From positions 9,288 to 41,287 of the forward strand of contig NJBF01000035.1 in NCBI GenBank assembly GCA_003144275.1: a DNA stretch of 32,000 bases. The letters are read 5' to 3'. Made by a program: the position numbers and the translations under genes. Positions 1 to 31,959 of the stretch are shown here, piece after piece; position 1 is the stretch's first letter; each line of letters opens with the position of its first letter. This DNA is from Candidatus Heimdallarchaeota archaeon B3_Heim. GTDB lineage: Archaea > Asgardarchaeota > Heimdallarchaeia > Hodarchaeales > Hodarchaeaceae. The notes beneath the pieces were generated by a model, which was not told the origin of the DNA, made no database searches, and saw nothing but the letters and a program-made list of their open reading frames with translations.

Positions 1-189
1 TATGAATATTTTATTTGTAAGCTTTTCAAGGTACTTTACTAGGACACTGAACCTCATGAAATTAAATTTAATTCGTTTATTGTTGTAAAGGATATTTGCC
101 CCATCAACAATAAATGATATGCTCTTCTCTTTCTCCCACTTTTTCTTGAGATATTGTGTTATCTCATTAAAATCTTTCACTATCGACAT
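1..189 (-). CDS. NYN/PIN-like ribonuclease domain protein, N-terminal part (runs off window start; absent from ORF track)
   Basis: Manually translated open frame from ATG at 189: MSIVKDFNEITQYLKKKWEKEKSISFIVDGANILYNNKRIKFNFMRF..., with AGGTGA SD upstream. 'FIVDGANI' matches the first catalytic DGxN motif of NYN/PIN-like RNases. Confidence 0.6.
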   Translation of the reverse strand, partial: MSIVKDFNEITQYLKKKWEKEKSISFIVDGANILYNNKRIKFNFMRFSVLVKYLEKLTNKIFI

Positions 190-211
190 AATGGTCACCT
201 AATAATGATCG

Positions 212-579: not shown

Positions 580-686
580 TGAAGCTGGTGGGATTTGAAC
601 CCACGCCCCCCCTTGAGGAACGTGTAAATGTTGCTCAAAATTGCACTTTCCTCAAGGAGGGTGTTCTGCCACTAAACTACAGCTTC
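580..686 (-). tRNA. tRNA-like RNA with extended anticodon arm, anticodon undetermined
   Basis: Minus strand: acceptor GAAGCTG/CAGCTTC plus discriminator A; D-arm GTTT-AGTGGCA-GAAC; T-arm GTGGG-TTCAAAT-CCCAC. The anticodon arm is a ~14-bp uninterrupted stem CCCTCCTTGAGGAA/TTCCTCAAGGGGGG enclosing 27 nt. No CCA encoded. Confidence 0.8.
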
Positions 687-688
687 TC

Positions 689-1723
689 TTAATCATATTG
701 GAATTTCATATATTCCATGATTTCGTGAGATTTAATATTATATTGTTCCTCGGCATATTTAATAAATTTGTTCTTGAATCTCTTCTCTTGATTAGGATCT
801 TCGAAAATATATTTCTTCTTTGTTTTATATTTTTCAAGCACGTGAGCTATAATCGTATCTTTATCTAAAGCTTCTAATACATTTTTATCAATTATAGAAG
901 ATAATTCTCTTATAAGGACTAATATTTCAACCATTTCTGCTTCGTCCATCTTTTCTTTAATCATTTTTGCCTCTTTTTTACCCTTATTTGCTTCTCTTCC
1001 GTTCTTTTTCTGCACTACCTTATGCATAATCGGTTTAGCAAAATTTATGTTGGAAAACCTTTTCTTTTTCTTATTTCTTCTAATTTCACTCCAATATTGA
1101 TTAAGCAAAACACCTTTAGATGAGATTAATTCTGCAAGGGATTTTGTTTGCTTTTTTCTATCATGGACGATATGATTCCTCCTTTTTCTAATATAGTCAT
1201 TTGTGTCAATTATATTTTGATCAAAGCATCTTTGATCTTCACAATCCCTTTCTGGGAAGAGATAATTACTTAGAGATAATAATATGGTATTACATTTCTT
1301 TTCTGGATTTCCTTCTTGAGAATTCGGGTTGACAATTGAGTTTGTTTGAGATCCTGTCCGTATCTTCTTAATGAATTTGAAGAGCGACAATAAATAGTCT
1401 TCAAAAATTGAATACGTAAAAACGAAGGTAGATTCAAATGTAAATTCTCTCGATTTACTAAAATCGGTGTCAAAATCATTAAGTTTTACATTATATTTCT
1501 TAGAACGAGCTATAGAGGAAAAACAATCCTCGGTTAAACAATCAGGTTGAGACTTGATTAGAACCTCATTCTTCATTATGAAAAAGTCTTGAACGAACAG
1601 TGTTAATTGGAGATCTCTGTTGATTTGTGAAATTTTTTTTCTTAATTTCAGAATTTCTTTGGATCTCATTTCTTTCTCATCAACTTCAAATAATATGTGT
1701 AATTTGATAATGTAAAAGCTCAT
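689..1723 (-). CDS. HEPN-domain protein (predicted RNase; RiboL-PSP/MAE_28990-like type)
   Basis: 344-aa ORF with R-x4-H motif (RKRRNHIVH) and an upstream 'YSIFEDYL' motif typical of HEPN folds. Confidence 0.7.
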   Translation of the reverse strand: MSFYIIKLHILFEVDEKEMRSKEILKLRKKISQINRDLQLTLFVQDFFIMKNEVLIKSQPDCLTEDCFSSIARSKKYNVKLNDFDTDFSKSREFTFESTFVFTYSIFEDYLLSLFKFIKKIRTGSQTNSIVNPNSQEGNPEKKCNTILLSLSNYLFPERDCEDQRCFDQNIIDTNDYIRKRRNHIVHDRKKQTKSLAELISSKGVLLNQYWSEIRRNKKKKRFSNINFAKPIMHKVVQKKNGREANKGKKEAKMIKEKMDEAEMVEILVLIRELSSIIDKNVLEALDKDTIIAHVLEKYKTKKKYIFEDPNQEKRFKNKFIKYAEEQYNIKSHEIMEYMKFQYD

Positions 1724-2686: not shown

Positions 2687-3965
2687 CAGTTCTTCGTATC
2701 ACCTCCTTGAAAACTCCTCCTGTCTTCTAAAAAGTGCTTGATGCCATGATGTGACAATGAATTCGCAGAAATCGTTCGCTGAATAAACAAAATCGGCTCG
2801 ACATCGCCGACTAGCTGATTTTAAGATGTGAATCGGTGATTTAAAGTAGGCCCAGAAATTACACAACCAAAATGCAATGAGAACAAGAATGAATCTAAGA
2901 GTTGGGTTTTGAGAACAACTAAAGATTTGAAATCGGTGCATCTGACGATAATAGGTCTCAATCGTGAATCTTCGACGGTAAAGTAAAGCTATCTTCTTTC
3001 CTGAAAGATTACATGTAGTGGGAACAACTAAAGCTATAACACGAGTACCCTCTTGACACAGAGCAAGTTTTACTGGAAATCTCTCGCGGGTGTGACCTTT
3101 ATTCAATTTATAATTCACGATTAGGGCATCCCCTTTTTGAAGTAACTTTTCTTTATGTTTTTGTACTAAAGGTTTGACTCCCGAATTGACACGTCCACGA
3201 ATAATGAAGAAGACCTGTTCACTAACAAGCCACTTAATGAAATCCCAGTTATAGAAGCTACCGTCCGCCAATATTCCAACAATTCGTTCTTGAGTGAGTA
3301 AAGGCATCAAAAGGTTCTGAGCTGTCTTGAAAACAGAATGCTTTGTAGGAACGAGTTGAACCCCTAACGTGATTGGTTCGGGTGCATTTATCCAAATAAC
3401 CGTTATATACTGATAAAATTTATGAGTACTGGCCTTTTTCTTACCTTTACAGATGTAAGGAGAAACCGTCCTTGCATAGTTAGGATCAGTATGAAAATCG
3501 ATCGCTAACAACATTCCTTGCTTTCTTGCGCTTTGAAAGTTCTCGGGAAGACTTTCAAGAAACTTAAGAAAGCCGATTTGTTGTGAGAGCGTAATTTCCT
3601 CAACAGAATTTGTTCTTAACCATGCCAGGGTAGCTTCCCCAGAGGGAATTGGGAGATGTAGCTCGCGAAGATCTCGAGCCTTCCGAGAAATGGAGGTTCG
3701 ATCGAGTGCGGTAAGTAAAAGTAATTTTAACCTGCCTTTCATAGTAAACGGTGATTTAGCAGGAATGGGGGTTGACAAGAATTGAAATCTATCCAACCAG
3801 CGTACCATAAAGTTTATAAGAGTCGGAGTTTTTCTAGCTTTACGTGGCGGAAAGCGAGGTAACTTAAGTTTGGTCATTTGAGTGATTCCTCGCTGGAATC
3901 CACTTTTAAAGGTTTCCCCTCCTTTTTTTTCATCCCGCTCAAAAAAATGAAGTTACGAAGTACTG
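2687..3965 (-). mobile_element. ISH3-family insertion sequence, 1279 bp, apparently intact
   Basis: TIRs CAGTTCTTCGTA (2687-2698) and CAGTACTTCGTA (reverse complement of 3954-3965), 11/12 identical. 4-bp target duplication CAGC (2683-2686, 3966-3969). Contains one DDE transposase. Confidence 0.9.
2699..3877 (-). CDS. ISH3-family DDE transposase
   Basis: 392 aa; motifs LAIDFHTDPNY, ILADGSFY and YRRRFTIETYY (D, D, E triad with YxxRxxIE). The stop abuts the TIR. Confidence 0.9.
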   Translation of the reverse strand: MTKLKLPRFPPRKARKTPTLINFMVRWLDRFQFLSTPIPAKSPFTMKGRLKLLLLTALDRTSISRKARDLRELHLPIPSGEATLAWLRTNSVEEITLSQQIGFLKFLESLPENFQSARKQGMLLAIDFHTDPNYARTVSPYICKGKKKASTHKFYQYITVIWINAPEPITLGVQLVPTKHSVFKTAQNLLMPLLTQERIVGILADGSFYNWDFIKWLVSEQVFFIIRGRVNSGVKPLVQKHKEKLLQKGDALIVNYKLNKGHTRERFPVKLALCQEGTRVIALVVPTTCNLSGKKIALLYRRRFTIETYYRQMHRFQIFSCSQNPTLRFILVLIAFWLCNFWAYFKSPIHILKSASRRCRADFVYSANDFCEFIVTSWHQALFRRQEEFSRR

Positions 3966-3981
3966 CAGCCTTTGACGGAGT
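3966..3981 (+). repeat. Site S2, right half
   Basis: CAGCC-TTTGACGGAGT, identical to the right part of S3. Confidence 0.85.
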
Positions 3982-4044
3982 TCATAAGTTAGAATAATTA
4001 CTTGAGTAGGGAGTGTGTTGAATCCAATCCTATTCGCGAAATTC

Positions 4045-5757: not shown

Positions 5758-6114
5758 ATGTTTCGGAATCTCCCAATAATAAAACCGATTGAATATACTA
5801 ATAGTCATCTGAAACCTGTTGAAAAACAAAATATTCACCTTTTTTGTGTACAAACCCATCCTGATAAACTCCACCCCATTCCTTTCTCTTCAGAACCATT
5901 GAATGAGGATATGGTTTATCTTTTCATTAATGATGTCTTGCGAAAAATCTTTTTGTGGGTTGGTACGACTGCTTCGATCCGATCCAAATTCGTTGGCGCA
6001 CATTCAGCTATCGTACTCCAACGAAAAACAGGGATTACTTATCGAGTAGAAAATATTGATGAGGATCATGAGTCGGCTGACTTTCGTAGGACTATATCGG
6101 TATTTGAAGCCTAA
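5758..6114 (+). CDS. Single-domain gelsolin-like protein
   Basis: 118 aa; LNEDMVYLF...KIFLWVGTTAS...KFVG...VENIDEDHESADF follows the gelsolin-domain consensus. GAGGA SD. Confidence 0.75.
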   Translation: MFRNLPIIKPIEYTNSHLKPVEKQNIHLFCVQTHPDKLHPIPFSSEPLNEDMVYLFINDVLRKIFLWVGTTASIRSKFVGAHSAIVLQRKTGITYRVENIDEDHESADFRRTISVFEA

Positions 6115-6197
6115 TTAACCACAGAGATTTCTTTCTACAAAAGTGGGAGCTTTGCGTTGTTTATATTAGAAAAAGAATATACTCGGGTATATATTTT

Positions 6198-6225
6198 TCT
6201 TATCTAAACCAGCCTTTGACGGAGT
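6198..6225 (+). repeat. Site S3, preceded by imperfect hairpin 6154-6213
   Basis: TCTTATCTAAA-CCAGCC-TTTGACGGAGT; 21 nt (AAACCAGCCTTTGACGGAGTT) identical to reconstituted S2. Confidence 0.85.
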
Positions 6226-6404
6226 TGGTGAAAAAAAATCATTTTACTAAGCCCTCAAGGGAAAAATAGAATATACAATCTAAGTTTGAACCCCCCTACT
6301 TTTAAGTCTTAATTGTCAAGACGTTGGCTATTACTGAATTTCATAGATGGCTTTATTATTCAGAAAGTATAAAATTGAAGTTGAATAACAATAAGGGAAA
6401 TATT

Positions 6405-6659: not shown

Positions 6660-7529
6660 TTATTTTCTTTTCATATTCTGGACTTTTATTCGTTTTGTGA
6701 GTTCTTCCGCAAATTTCTTGTCAGTGGACGCGGTCAATCGTTTCATAGTTGTATCATATCCATTGATCTGTTCTTCTTCCAATGTCCTAGAATAGTTTTC
6801 TGACGGATCGATTTCCTCCAGCATTTCAATTAAGGTGTTTCTCTCCTCTTTCGACATGACTCTTGGATCAGTCATAGCTGCTGCTCTAGTATAAATCTTT
6901 TCATCCAATAGGGATTTTAATGCTTTGAAGGGAAGTTTGAAATATTTACCTATGGCACCCGTTACCTGAGTGAAGGTTTCTGGAGTGGCTGCTTTAAATG
7001 ATACTCGTACGTAGAGTTTATCTTTAAATTCAGCTAGTTGCTTCACATAGTTCAAGTCATTACCAAGAAGAATTCCGTTTGTTTCCAGGATGAAAAGAGA
7101 ATACTTCGAGGTCATTATATAAGGCAATAGGGCTAGTAAATGTTCTTTTCCTAACGTTGGTTCACTCCCTGATAAGCGAAGCTTCTCAATTTTGATATTT
7201 TTAAAACGCTGCCATCCTTTAGCAGTAATTCCTTCTTCTGCTGCTTTAAACAACCTCTTTGCTACCTTTTCTGGTGAGTGAAATGATCCATATGTCTCGG
7301 GGAAGTCCCTCGACCAATTCCCCCAACAATAAATACAGCGTAAACAACATCCCACAGCATACCCTGTCGCGATTCCACCATAAACGGGAGCTGAATAAAT
7401 ACTTACATACTTCCTCTCCAATCCCGCAGAACCTGTTCTCGTCACTATCTTCTCTGTTTTTTTTGCCAGCTCTAATGGATCAAACGGTCGAAAACCTGGA
7501 ATCAAAAAACGTTGATACTTGTTCTGCAC
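6660..7529 (-). CDS. Radical SAM protein (archaeal YGGIAT-type, uncharacterised)
   Basis: CxxxCxxC (CCLRCIYCW) preceded by YGGIATG; RLSGSEP motif; GTG start with GGTGA SD. Confidence 0.85.
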   Translation of the reverse strand: MQNKYQRFLIPGFRPFDPLELAKKTEKIVTRTGSAGLERKYVSIYSAPVYGGIATGYAVGCCLRCIYCWGNWSRDFPETYGSFHSPEKVAKRLFKAAEEGITAKGWQRFKNIKIEKLRLSGSEPTLGKEHLLALLPYIMTSKYSLFILETNGILLGNDLNYVKQLAEFKDKLYVRVSFKAATPETFTQVTGAIGKYFKLPFKALKSLLDEKIYTRAAAMTDPRVMSKEERNTLIEMLEEIDPSENYSRTLEEEQINGYDTTMKRLTASTDKKFAEELTKRIKVQNMKRK

Positions 7530-7635
7530 TTAATATCACCTACCTTGAGCTTGTCACAAAAGGTTTTTTTCAAGTAGATTTTACTATGTGTTGGTAATAT
7601 TCCTGTTAATCAGGGTATACTGGCATATATACTTT

Positions 7636-7663
7636 TCCTAGGTAAGCCAGCCATGGACGACAT
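7636..7663 (+). repeat. Site S4
   Basis: TCCTAGGTAAG-CCAGCC-ATGGACGACAT; 18 nt identical to S7 (CCAGCCATGGACGACATT). Confidence 0.8.
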
Positions 7664-9916: not shown

Positions 9917-9958
9917 CTTTAACCGTAATCCTAGCAAGGAAATATTAGTATATACTTT

Positions 9959-9986
9959 TGTAATCTAAACCAGCCATGGACGGAGT
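9959..9986 (+). repeat. Site S5
   Basis: TGTAATCTAAA-CCAGCC-ATGGACGGAGT; 27 nt (9956-9982) identical to 22076-22102. Confidence 0.85.
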
Positions 9987-10153
9987 TCAGACATTACCAA
10001 ATTTATTCAATCCGATTTTGTCTCCATTATCAAGGCATTACTCCTGATAGTTACCTTACATCATCTTAGAATTATTTCATCTAATCTGACTTTATTACTT
10101 CATTCGACTCTCTTTTCTATTATAATGAGAATTTTAGATCCATATAGGTTTAA

Positions 10154-12879: not shown

Positions 12880-13008
12880 TTAGCTTTCTAGATGTTTAGA
12901 AAATGATTAGTTTTGATCATCATCCTTTAGTATAAGCTTTCAAATTCTTAATTAGCCTAAATCTCTTTTGAATATCAAAGTAAATAAAATCTCAGATTAT
13001 ATACCAGA

Positions 13009-13048
13009 GTGAGATGTGCGCGAAATTTTATTTTTCGCTGTTTTGACA
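13009..13048 (+). repeat. 40-bp repeat (copy 1), probable mobile-element end
   Basis: GTGAGATGTGCGCGAAATTTTATTTTTCGCTGTTTTGACA; 39/40 identical to 31846-31885. Confidence 0.85.
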
Positions 13049-14902
13049 GATGGGGAAGAAACAGACGCAAGATACATAGCTGACGTTGCTGATATGATTA
13101 CGAACAATCATACACAAGTCCATGTCATTTTATTAGGTGTGGACACAGAAGCTTCTGAACTACAAGAGCTAGCGTATGCTACACAAGGGTCGATTCATTT
13201 TGCTTTTGATCCTGCATCAGGTACTTTAACCTCTGATCTAGCAGATATTTATCGTTCTATCGCAGAGCAAACAACCAATGAACAACGAGTCTTTTCAAAC
13301 TCAGCAGTACTTAAAGGGACTAATTGGAATATAGAGGATTCATTTTCTCTCGACCAAGCGAAAAAAGCTACAATAGTCCTTAACTATAAAGCCAGTTCTC
13401 CTCTTGTTGGGCAACCAGTAGTGGTACAAACGCCTGGAGGTGCAAATATTTCAGCAACGTTTACAGGAGGAAAACAAGGGGTAACAAACTACTATGGCCA
13501 TTACGTTTGGATTTTAAACCAACCTATTGCAGGTATTTACAAAATAATAGTTGGTCAGGGATCAGGAGATATTGAATATTTCACAGAAGCTTCTGTTGAA
13601 GGCCCCGTCTCAATGAATATCTATTTTCCTCTCCCTGATCGACGATCTTTAAAAGAACCTAGTTTAAGAGTAACTGGGTGTGAATTTCCGATTCTTGTGT
13701 CACTTGCTGATGATACTCCTATTATTGACGCTCGTATTAATGCTTCCATTATAACTGGAACGAGTTATACGAATTATGAATCATGGAATTTAATGCTTTA
13801 TGATGATGGACATCATGGAGATGGTTTACCTGCTGATGGAGTCTATGGAAATTGGTTTACAAGGACAATGAACCCAGGAACATATTCTGTCAAAGTTCAA
13901 GCCACTGGATATTCCTCTATTACTGGAGATTTCACGCGTGAAGTAAATCAAGCATTTCATCTAACTCCTGATGAGGATTTGGATAAAGATGGCTTGCCTG
14001 ATGGATGGGAAACACGATTTGGGATGAATACCCAAACTGTGGTTGGTGAAGACGGTGGAAAAGGGGATCAAGACCTTGATGGTTTAGAAAATCTTGATGA
14101 GCTAATGTACGGGACGAGTCCAATAACAGCAGATACAGATCGCGGAGGAGAAAGTGATTTCTCAGAGGTCAATGGCAGTCGTGATCCCTACTTCATGGAA
14201 GATGATAATCTTGTTCTACCCCACTTTCTGGCCATTCCTGGGAACCAGAATGTTACGATTCGATTCCAACCAAGACCTGGAGTAGTCCAATTTAAGCTTT
14301 ATCGTGCTGATAACATTAGTAAAAGCTTTGTGCTTATAGACGATTCGATAGACGCGAGTACACTCGAGTTTATTGATTCTGGTTTGACTAACGGTGAAAT
14401 TTATTACTATCGAATGATTGCTGTGAATTCAGGAGGGGCTGAAAGTGGTTATAGTCCGATAATGAGTGTTATCCCTAGGATTGATACAATTCGACCTGTT
14501 GCATTTGTTTTTATTAACAATGGAGATCAATACACTAATAATCCTACAGTAACATTAAAAATGATCACTAATGAAACAGATATCACACACATGCGAGTTT
14601 CGCAAACATCGTCATTTGAAGGAGGTTCATGGGTACACTTTCAAAATACTATTATGTTCACATTGATGGGTATAGGGCCACAATTTGTATTTGTAGAATT
14701 CAAAGATACGTTCGGGAATATAGGCGGGAATGATCGTGGTATATATGCTTATGATGGAATAATCATTGATCCCAGCTATTCACCCCCAAGTTCATCCAGT
14801 ACTACTCAAAATGCAGATTGGGCTTCTTTCGATATTGTTGTTTATGGGTTGATTATCTCATCAATAATTCTTTACAGGAAGAAAAAGAAATTAAAAAGGT
14901 GA
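13016..14902 (+). CDS. 5'-truncated VWA / CLCA-like surface protein with Ca-binding repeats, FN3-like domain and C-terminal TM anchor
   Basis: VWA second half (LTDGEE, no DxSxS); LYDDGHHGDGLPADGVY (CLCA/choice-of-anchor X-like); DLDKDGLPDGWE repeats; FN3-like YYYRMIAVN; Ser/Thr linker, TM, RKKKK tail. No signal peptide; the first codons derive from the 40-bp repeat. Confidence 0.7.
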   Translation: MREILFFAVLTDGEETDARYIADVADMITNNHTQVHVILLGVDTEASELQELAYATQGSIHFAFDPASGTLTSDLADIYRSIAEQTTNEQRVFSNSAVLKGTNWNIEDSFSLDQAKKATIVLNYKASSPLVGQPVVVQTPGGANISATFTGGKQGVTNYYGHYVWILNQPIAGIYKIIVGQGSGDIEYFTEASVEGPVSMNIYFPLPDRRSLKEPSLRVTGCEFPILVSLADDTPIIDARINASIITGTSYTNYESWNLMLYDDGHHGDGLPADGVYGNWFTRTMNPGTYSVKVQATGYSSITGDFTREVNQAFHLTPDEDLDKDGLPDGWETRFGMNTQTVVGEDGGKGDQDLDGLENLDELMYGTSPITADTDRGGESDFSEVNGSRDPYFMEDDNLVLPHFLAIPGNQNVTIRFQPRPGVVQFKLYRADNISKSFVLIDDSIDASTLEFIDSGLTNGEIYYYRMIAVNSGGAESGYSPIMSVIPRIDTIRPVAFVFINNGDQYTNNPTVTLKMITNETDITHMRVSQTSSFEGGSWVHFQNTIMFTLMGIGPQFVFVEFKDTFGNIGGNDRGIYAYDGIIIDPSYSPPSSSSTTQNADWASFDIVVYGLIISSIILYRKKKKLKR

Positions 14903-15823: not shown

Positions 15824-15851
15824 CAAAAACTAAACCAGCCTTTTACGGAGG
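15824..15851 (+). repeat. Site S6
   Basis: CAAAAACTAAA-CCAGCC-TTTTACGGAGG; right arm 9/11 identical to S2/S3. Confidence 0.7.
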
Positions 15852-16002
15852 TAGAGAAAAAACCATTCATTCGTCTAACCTGTACTTATTAGAGTTTATT
15901 TTTGAAATTGATTTATTCTTTTGAAGGTTGACGGAGATAATCATACCTGAATCCCAAGTAAAGAAAAAAGAAATTTAATCTCCACTCTGAATTTGATTTA
16001 TA

Positions 16003-22019: not shown

Positions 22020-22078
22020 TATTTTAAATTTACAATTAACGGTGGATTCATGAAGGAATATACCCTGGTATATATTTT

Positions 22079-22106
22079 TGTAATCTAAACCAGCCATGGA
22101 CGACAT
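22079..22106 (+). repeat. Site S7, preceded by imperfect hairpin 22041-22091
   Basis: TGTAATCTAAA-CCAGCC-ATGGACGACAT; last site seen in the window. Confidence 0.85.
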
Positions 22107-31608: not shown

Positions 31609-31845
31609 AAGTGTGAAAAACGGCCGAACTTTTCTCTTTTTCTATCCCAAAAAAAATCTCTGATTGTAAACATATCCAATTGTTACTACAATACAGAAAA
31701 AAAATCTTTGAACTTTGTGATAGTTGTAATCAAAAATACTAGAGATGTGCGATTAACGAAAAATTCTTCTACTGAGGTAAAAGGTGTTCTGAAGTTGTTC
31801 CCTTAATAAATCTCTATTTCTCCATTCTCCACGGTATATACAATG

Positions 31846-31885
31846 GTGAGATGTGCGCGAAATTTTATTTTTCGTTGTTTTGACA
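31846..31885 (+). repeat. 40-bp repeat (copy 2), probable end of an element extending beyond the window
   Basis: 39/40 identical to 13009-13048; a 10-nt partial GAGATGTGCG also occurs at 31742-31751. Confidence 0.8.
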
Positions 31886-31959
31886 TTTCGGGGAAGAGTG
31901 GACTGTAATAATCCGACAATAATATGATTATTATTGAACAAGAGAGGTGAGGAGAACAT

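Follow-up and report, generated by a model that had tools for sequence, protein, structure and literature searches.

HEPN RNases are among the most common effectors of prokaryotic immunity and toxin-antitoxin (TA) systems, and many of them cut tRNA anticodon loops. The anticodon nucleases PrrC, RloC, ApeA and HepS belong to defence systems and are regulated by proteins, peptides or small molecules, not by an RNA partner. How stand-alone HEPN enzymes are kept silent is often unknown. A HEPN RNase that is paired with a dedicated RNA is AbiF, an Abi_2-family toxin with a cis-encoded structured ncRNA, AbiFr. In this type III-like TA system, the proposed root of Cas13, the toxin is neutralised by direct binding of the RNA to the HEPN dimer, with bulged nucleotides blocking the active site (10.1101/2025.04.15.648962; PMC12737573). 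In the classical type III systems ToxIN, CptIN and TenpIN a protein endoRNase is likewise encoded next to a non-coding RNA, in defence and mobile contexts. However, these toxins are not HEPN proteins, and their antitoxins are tandem repeats upstream of the toxin, separated from it by a terminator and processed by the toxin itself.

tRNA-shaped RNAs without a decoding function are known as well. In the bacterial Y RNA YrlA, the tRNA-like domain of tmRNA, the MALAT1 mascRNA and viral 3' tRNA-like structures, an acceptor/T-arm mimic is attached to a non-tRNA helix and is processed by tRNA enzymes. In the mascRNA case, RNase P cleavage defines the 3' end of the upstream transcript. Archaeal pre-tRNAs, in turn, may carry an insert at the anticodon region that is bounded by a bulge-helix-bulge (BHB) motif.

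Here we analysed a stretch of 32,000 nt from Candidatus Heimdallarchaeota archaeon B3_Heim (contig NJBF01000035.1; from here: the window), in which a predicted HEPN RNase gene is followed directly by a single tRNA-shaped RNA. The pair recurs in unrelated places, mostly bacterial defence regions, and looks like a two-part toxin/RNA module that this archaeon picked up from elsewhere. We found no description of a HEPN protein combined with a tRNA-like antitoxin or partner RNA in the papers searched; the mentions of 'tRNA-like' in the CoCoNuT paper concern tmRNA and tRNA fragments.

The predicted HEPN gene and the tRNA-shaped RNA

The elements of the locus are the following:
689..1723 (-), predicted HEPN RNase gene of the RiboL-PSP-HEPN kind; the longest ORF has 344 aa, but the homologues begin at its Met19, so that the likely CDS is 689-1669
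1163..1180 (-), predicted catalytic HEPN motif R182-N183-H-I-V-H187 (R-N-x3-H)
687..691 (-), stop codon TAA (691-689) plus a 2-nt spacer GA before the first base of the RNA
580..686 (-), tRNA-shaped RNA gene of 107 nt, with the acceptor stem 686-680/587-581, the discriminator A at 580, the D arm 677-663 and the T arm 604-588
607..661 (-), rod replacing the anticodon stem-loop, a 14-bp unbulged helix (661-648 with 620-607) around 27 nt (647-621), containing the family-conserved CUUG...CAAG core
2699..3877 (-), DDE transposase (IS) beside the module (Pfam DDE_Tnp_1, E 4.7e-11), consistent with an acquired islet

The preliminary description of a tRNA fold with a sealed anticodon arm 2 nt after the stop codon was confirmed. 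The Rfam tRNA model (RF00005) scores the element with 53 bits against a gathering score of 29 (E 7e-9 over the whole window), matching all 71 model positions with a 41-nt insertion at the anticodon loop. RNAfold predicted a 7-bp acceptor stem, a 4-bp D stem, a 5-bp T stem with a UUCAAAU loop and the continuous 14-bp helix in place of the 5-bp anticodon stem with its 7-nt loop. It is therefore a tRNA-like RNA and not a decoding tRNA. The very short variable region noted previously depends on the register: it is 2 nt if all 14 pairs form, and 4-5 nt if the run of seven Gs slips. The statement that both genes lie in an S1-S2 module could not be reproduced; the repeated intergenic motif we found has copies at 3962 and to the right, and none to the left of the module.

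With default settings ARAGORN misses the gene; with introns allowed it calls Leu(GAG), which is not credible because there is no long variable arm. Deleting every possible single intron before running ARAGORN yielded many incompatible calls (Glu, Gly, Arg, Ser and others) and was not informative. A strict, exhaustive scan for BHB motifs found no splice pair compatible with the cloverleaf, except for a weak slipped form (exon ends at tRNA nt 39/75) whose outer helix has three G-U pairs. In contrast, other tRNA genes of the same genome have clean hBHBh' motifs.

The HEPN assignment rests on the homologues, as the window protein itself has no Pfam hit at E<=0.01 and no PADLOC hit. A word-indexed search recovered only the protein itself, whereas an exhaustive HMMER search of 1.84 billion cluster representatives matched 66 protein clusters (one representative each at 50% identity) at E<=1e-3, most aligning from residue 19. 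R182, N183 and H187 are invariant in 38 aligned homologues, of which 13 hit Pfam PF18735 (best E 2.5e-6). The profile of this alignment gave nothing meaningful against PDB sequences. While a single-sequence AF2 model was useless (pLDDT 37), the AF2 model used here is all-helical with pLDDT 85 and pTM 0.85, and its top AFDB cluster is a RiboL-PSP-HEPN protein (E 2.3e-9, TM 0.62/0.73 over residues 19-342). Foldseek gave no hit against the PDB at E<=0.001. Solved HEPN domains top the VIA list at Z 7-8.2 (3o10, 2hsb, 5yep_B, 7ae2, 9oik and 8xdj at Z 7.3-8.2), but Z-scores of 7-8 are in the range that helical bundles reach by chance.

Conservation of the gene-RNA pair in homologous loci

We next inspected the 3' flanks of the homologues. 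In all 19 homologue loci of the core family with a readable 3' flank (25-32% identity, mostly AT-rich bacterial defence-island contexts), the HEPN gene is followed on the same strand by a similarly built RNA of 95-110 nt that abuts or overlaps the stop codon. Together with the window, this amounts to 20 distinct loci, each with one copy of the RNA at a spacing of +2 to -48 nt (0 to -48 nt in the homologues). Three loci without it are uninformative, since two have an IS-truncated gene and in one the contig ends. One borderline homologue (P0061, E 1e-4) has no such RNA within 254 nt, hence the pair is found in 20 of 21 informative loci. Among the 20 neighbourhoods only the HEPN protein is shared, so the pair is the unit. 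The context in the homologue loci is defence-like and mobile, including HNH, NOV_C, RT, Schlafen/AlbA_2 with N6_Mtase, HEPN/RES, GmrSD, AAA_15/21 ATPase and integrases. In two loci the HEPN gene is truncated but the RNA is intact, a pattern that TA systems often show when the toxin decays first.

The RNA is under structural selection. In the alignment 96.5% of cells are paired and 22 of 27 base pairs show compensatory changes, which occur in all five helices; 0 of 500 shuffles reach this. All 20 RNAs have a rod of 38-64 nt (13-26 bp) instead of the anticodon stem-loop, with conserved CCCUUGG/CCAAGG columns, at which most members have a bulged C, while the distal rod varies in sequence but stays paired. 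The covariance model of the family (R1) scores the window RNA with 64 bits (E 7e-16). Rfam scans at gathering threshold of the window and of 18 homologue loci returned only tRNA hits, thus no abiF RNA motif, and Abi_2 is not among the 25 most-matched of the 31 Pfam families hit by the alignment members. RiboL-PSP-HEPN is nevertheless described as distantly related to AbiF/AbiD (PMC3710099). No Ro/Rsr or SmpB partner is present.

The copy in this Asgard-type archaeon (gelsolin genes, tRNA introns) is the only one found among 400 genomes of its phylum (0 of 399 other genomes), and it sits between native genes next to the IS. BLAST of the RNA against 40 relatives gave only generic T-arm hits to tRNA-Ala, tRNA-Pro and others. 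An exact 24-nt pattern of the 5' half gave nothing in metagenome contigs, and a 20-nt D-arm pattern hit unrelated tRNAs of many isotypes in genome and viral contigs. A search of viral contigs with a second family alignment confirmed no relative of the HEPN protein, and tblastn with protein P0009 found no match in the plasmid and phage collections. A structured pattern for the RNA gave one hit in viral contigs, which lies inside an 858-aa ORF, does not match R1 and is a chance match.

Possible functions of the tRNA-shaped RNA

These results support the previous proposal of a new module of a HEPN gene and a tRNA-shaped RNA. For its mechanism, the preliminary description offered a decoy antitoxin or a processing element. 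In the absence of expression, processing or binding evidence, we consider it about as likely as not that the RNA is a type III-like antitoxin, analogous to AbiFr. In this hypothesis, a horizontally acquired module encodes both parts on one transcript, and RNase P should cut the RNA free at the end of the coding region, as the RNA keeps the features recognised by the tRNA-processing machinery, namely a 7-bp acceptor stem, a T arm and a D arm with GG. The freed RNA would bind the HEPN dimer as a pseudo-substrate, offering a tRNA body but no cleavable anticodon loop, and so keep the nuclease silent. When its supply or binding is disturbed, for example by phage infection or loss of the module, the enzyme would cut cellular RNA, probably tRNA anticodon loops. 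If so, this would be a second, independent case besides AbiF/AbiFr of a HEPN enzyme paired with a dedicated structured RNA. Some features fit less well: the order with the toxin first and one RNA copy second differs from classical type III systems, a stable tRNA-like fold is not obviously the labile partner that addiction models need, and in 15 of 18 intact genes the stop codon lies inside the RNA or overlaps it, so that RNase P cutting would remove it. The latter points to an additional or alternative cis-regulatory role.

Alternatively, though less likely, the RNA may be only a cis-acting RNase P handle that defines the 3' end of the toxin mRNA and does not bind the protein. In most members the toxin would then be made from a non-stop mRNA and, in bacteria, be tagged and degraded by trans-translation unless that system or RNase P is disturbed. 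In favour of this, the 5' end of the RNA coincides with the end of the conserved coding region in every locus, the stop codon is often the tRNA's own U8-A9-G10 or D-loop UAA, and the acceptor and T-arm features that RNase P needs are the best-conserved parts. However, an ordinary tRNA would serve this purpose, leaving the conserved CCCUUGG/CCAAGG rod with its bulged C and the absence of any anticodon loop unexplained. Moreover, the stop codon is intact upstream of the RNA in the window and in loci L038 and L056, archaea are not known to have tmRNA, and two loci keep the RNA although the HEPN gene is truncated. It is also possible, but doubtful, that the RNA is a cofactor, sensor or substrate, needed for assembly or targeting, or cut symmetrically in the rod so that a ligase produces a functional small RNA or tRNA in the manner of Ire1-type HEPN splicing. 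The strict pairing of protein and RNA is in favour of this, the near-palindromic rod core (CCUUGG/CCAAGG) would suit a symmetric dimer, and removing the hairpin between CUUG and CAA would leave a 7-nt loop, CUUGCAA. On the other hand, no ligase (RtcB or similar) is conserved nearby, HEPN sites usually cut single-stranded RNA, and pair 3:70 is U:A or A:U and not the G:U needed for the alanine identity that the UGC anticodon would imply.

An ordinary archaeal intron-containing tRNA gene that merely sits next to the ORF is very unlikely. This genome is rich in tRNA introns, and the slipped BHB (cut after tRNA nt 39 and before nt 75) would give a 72-nt cloverleaf of canonical dimensions with anticodon UGA. 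Yet this motif competes with a perfect 14-bp helix, its product would be a Ser-anticodon tRNA without the long variable arm and with a C31-A39 mismatch, 40 relatives have no orthologue, and the RNA design accompanies HEPN homologues mostly in bacterial contexts, where BHB splicing is not known. Least probable is a decayed tRNA or att-site remnant with a chance insertion, linked to the ORF only because islands integrate at tRNA genes. An IS and other accessory genes are adjacent and some homologue loci contain integrases, but the compensatory changes, the conserved rod, and the constant strand and near-zero spacing in 20 loci with otherwise unrelated neighbours strongly disfavour this reading, and the genome has no second copy of the 5' half.

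A combination of two of these roles is speculative and rather unlikely, but not excluded. RNase P cleavage would strip the stop codon from the toxin mRNA in most members, so that in healthy bacteria the toxin would be made from a non-stop message and destroyed, while the released RNA would act as an uncleavable tRNA decoy for any enzyme that escapes. A phage that perturbs RNase P, tRNA maturation or trans-translation would then unleash an anticodon nuclease. This would be a new sensing logic for abortive infection and the first RNA antitoxin that is a tRNA mimic.

The NYN/PRORP-like gene downstream is not part of the module: in a genus relative (G004) its homologue sits next to the same-length 317-aa ORF (the epimerase's position), with no match to R1 in the locus. 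Although absent from the window, an imperfect palindrome of about 130-150 nt (...GCTGCTAAC... / ...GTTACCAGC...) is shared by several bacterial homologue loci, where it follows the RNA.

A tRNA fold behind the ORF

The region under study comprises the following elements, all read on the minus strand:

1723->689 (-), ORF, ending in the stop codon TAA at 691-689 and followed by GA
686-580 (-), tRNA fold of 107 nt
661-648 with 620-607 (-), uninterrupted 14-bp helix around 27 nt, within the tRNA fold

The Rfam tRNA model scored 53 bits against a gathering score of 29, with an E value of 7e-9 for the whole window, and tRNA was the only Rfam family above threshold in the 32 kb. All 71 model positions were matched, while 41 nt were inserted where the anticodon loop should be. 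In the minimum-energy fold, a 7-bp acceptor stem, a D arm and a T arm were present in addition to the 14-bp helix. ARAGORN with default settings reported nothing. With introns allowed, it called Leu(GAG), which cannot be right without a long variable arm.

The genome (G000; 3.95 Mb, 36% GC, 94% complete) has gelsolin-domain genes, suggesting an Asgard-type archaeon, and it is rich in intron-bearing tRNA genes. Many of these, on contigs C57, C80, C55, C88 and others, carry one or more introns, some at non-canonical positions. ARAGORN with the intron option mislabels several of them (calls such as 'Pyl', 'Stop' and Ile-tat), while Rfam detects only 26 tRNAs in this genome. In our scan for splice motifs, several genes showed clean hBHBh' motifs at 37/38, namely Thr-CGT and two Lys genes. 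The same scan found no splice pair compatible with the cloverleaf in the RNA studied here, with the exception of one slipped form. This form needs three G-U pairs and competes with the perfect 14-bp helix, and its product would carry a Ser anticodon without the long variable arm. An ordinary archaeal intron is therefore a very unlikely explanation of the insert. The RNA has no orthologue in 40 relatives, in which only generic T-arm hits appeared, and as an exact word its 5′ half is absent from metagenome contigs.

Homologues of the HEPN protein and their 3′ flanks

Taken alone, the protein has no Pfam or PADLOC hit. It has no relative in 60 genomes of its class and none was found in a word-indexed search of 5.8 billion proteins. 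Its identification as a HEPN RNase is supported by its homologues. An exhaustive HMMER search yielded 66 relatives at E<=1e-3, which are about 280 aa long and 25-32% identical, most of them aligning from Met19 of the window protein. In an alignment of 38 sequences, R182, N183 and H187 were invariant, which is the R-N-x3-H HEPN signature, and 13 members hit Pfam HEPN_RiboL-PSP. With this alignment, AlphaFold2 gave a model with a pLDDT of 85 and a pTM of 0.85, for which the best AlphaFold DB cluster was a RiboL-PSP-HEPN protein (E 2.3e-9, whole length). A Foldseek-independent search placed solved HEPN domains and HEPN toxins at the top at Z 7.3-8.2, values that are modest for helical proteins. 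RiboL-PSP-HEPN was described as distantly related to AbiF/AbiD by Anantharaman et al. (PMC3710099).

To investigate whether the RNA accompanies the protein, we retrieved 16 metagenome loci with the conserved TxDYIRLRRN stretch of the family and further loci by exact-protein look-up. The Rfam tRNA model hit the same strand directly behind the HEPN gene in 15 of the first 18 loci, and every hit was 95-110 nt long. The three loci without a hit are uninformative, because in L040 and L052 the gene is cut by an inserted element and in L048 the contig ends. The two interrupted genes are soil-metagenome copies with these features:

L040:925-1691 and L052:280-1300, HEPN genes cut at the same point (about residue 209) by the same GC-rich insert, which carries an opposite-strand ORF and is probably an IS

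A covariance model built from these RNAs (R1) found the RNA in all further core-family loci, and in total 20 distinct loci carry it. The only readable exception is L064, encoding a borderline homologue (E 1e-4), in which nothing was found within 254 nt. In two loci the RNA is intact although the HEPN gene is not:

L054:2862-3399 and L055:3001-3530, HEPN gene truncated or fragmented (145-aa and 97-aa ORFs), tRNA-like RNA intact at 80 and 82 bits

The RNA family, its junction with the ORF and possible mechanism

All members of the RNA family share a 7-bp acceptor stem, U8-A9-G10, a D arm with GG, a 4-5 nt variable region and a T arm with GGUUC.A.UCC. In place of the anticodon stem-loop they possess a rod of 38-64 nt (13-26 bp). 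The rod begins with about 5 proximal pairs, followed by the conserved CCCUUGG on the 5′ strand and CCAAGG on the 3′ strand. In most members one C is left bulged, whereas in the window an extra G pairs with it. Next there is usually a 1x1 mismatch, and the rod ends in a distal hairpin that varies in sequence and length but stays paired. The core can be read as an anticodon loop, CUUG and CAA, split by a hairpin. However, pair 3:70 is not G:U, so alanine identity is not indicated.

In the alignment of 20 sequences, 96.5% of cells form standard pairs and 22 of 27 pairs show changes on both sides. None of 500 shuffles reached these values, and sliding the 3′ partners dropped pairing to 41-58%. The alignment was fitted to the model, which favours the structure; an independent MAFFT/RNAalifold run had already given 19 covarying pairs.

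The position of the first base of the RNA relative to the end of the stop codon varies between loci.

Table. Spacing between the end of the stop codon and the first base of the RNA.
Spacing (nt): Loci
+2: window
0: 2 loci
-1: 1 locus
-2: 1 locus
-10: 7 loci
-15: 4 loci
-21: 1 locus
-48: 1 locus

In 15 of 18 intact genes the stop codon is inside or overlaps the RNA, and often it is the tRNA's own UAG at positions 8-10 or UAA in the D loop. We therefore infer that the two genes must be one transcript. RNase P generally recognizes the acceptor/T-arm stack, and a cut at the 5′ end of the RNA would trim the message exactly at the end of the conserved coding region, usually removing the stop codon.

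The best-supported reading, in which co-transcription, release by RNase P, binding and inhibition as well as the cellular target are inferred, is a type III-like toxin/RNA-antitoxin or abortive-infection pair with an RNA that is a tRNA mimic with a sealed anticodon arm. The closest characterized analogue is AbiF, a HEPN toxin that is neutralized through direct binding by a cis-encoded structured RNA, whose bulged nucleotides block the active site. Several stand-alone HEPN defense enzymes, such as ApeA and HepS, are anticodon nucleases, which makes a tRNA body without a cleavable loop a plausible pseudo-substrate. In addition or alternatively, the overlap with the stop codon suggests a second, cis-regulatory layer, which may be a rival explanation or, more speculatively, act together with the proposed antitoxin function. 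An RNase toxin with a dedicated RNA partner is a known arrangement, from which the pair reported here differs in the tRNA-like shape of the RNA. No paper describing a HEPN gene with a tRNA-like partner RNA was found in the literature searched, and Rfam holds no family for this RNA other than tRNA itself.

Genomic context of the module

An all-against-all comparison of the ORFs in the 20 neighbourhoods found only the HEPN protein in common. Neighbours include HNH, NOV_C, reverse transcriptases, Schlafen/AlbA_2 with N6_Mtase, HEPN/RES, a MutS-like protein, GmrSD, an AAA_15/21 ATPase, a D12 methylase, integrases and transposases, i.e. the contexts are those of defense and mobile elements. One locus has a Por_Secre_tail protein, which points to Bacteroidota, and most loci are AT-rich. 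No copy was found in the plasmid or phage collections, nor in viral contigs. In several bacterial homologue loci the RNA is followed by a shared sequence:

L042:2567-2716 and L046:3929-4078 (also L041, L044, L049, L053 and L055), AAAATTACGGCTGCTAAC..., pairing with a distal ...GTTACCAGC to form an imperfect palindrome of about 130-150 nt

This palindrome resembles an integron attC site, and the HEPN gene and RNA may travel together as an integron cassette.

A profile of the family found no other copy in 399 sampled genomes of the phylum. The following features surround the copy in the window:

1-198 (-), continuing to G000:C84:9006 (L021:9006-9485), 159-aa NYN-domain RNase (Pfam RNase_Zc3h12a, E 2e-14; weak PRORP hit), about 380 nt downstream of the tRNA-like RNA on the same strand
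5758-6114, gelsolin ORF
6660-7529 (-), radical SAM ORF with weak matches to prokaryotic viperin (pVip) models (E 6.6e-7)

Both flanks are native to the genus. The gelsolin ORF has 86-88% identical orthologues in three genus members. To the left, the NYN gene and an epimerase form a pair. In the genus member G004, a 51%-identical homologue of the NYN protein is followed by an ORF of the same length (317 aa) as the epimerase, and model R1 found no match in that locus. The NYN gene therefore seems independent of the module. The module lies next to a weak PD-(D/E)XK-like ORF and a DDE transposase, and its GC content is about 29-31%, against 36% for the genome. We interpret this as a horizontally acquired islet from an unknown donor lineage, the nearest protein being only 32% identical. 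Together with the HEPN module and the IS, the radical SAM ORF suggests a small defense or accessory region.

Two types of repeats were noticed in the window:

3960-3992, 6187-6236, 7625-7659, 9948-9997, 15830-15862 and 22068-22105 (+), repeated intergenic element, GTATATAYTTTT..CTAAACCAGCCWTKGACGGAG
12998-13055 and 31835-31892, 58-nt direct repeat, 88% identical, starting with TATATAC

The core of the intergenic element has 5 matches within 3 mismatches, against 0.03 expected by chance, and all are on the + strand. It may be a promoter plus leader or a small repeat family. It may also correspond to the 'S' elements of the preliminary description, which placed both genes in an S1-S2 module, but no copy lies to the left of the HEPN module. 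The 58-nt repeat lies just upstream of long + strand ORFs and may be a shared promoter or 5′ leader.
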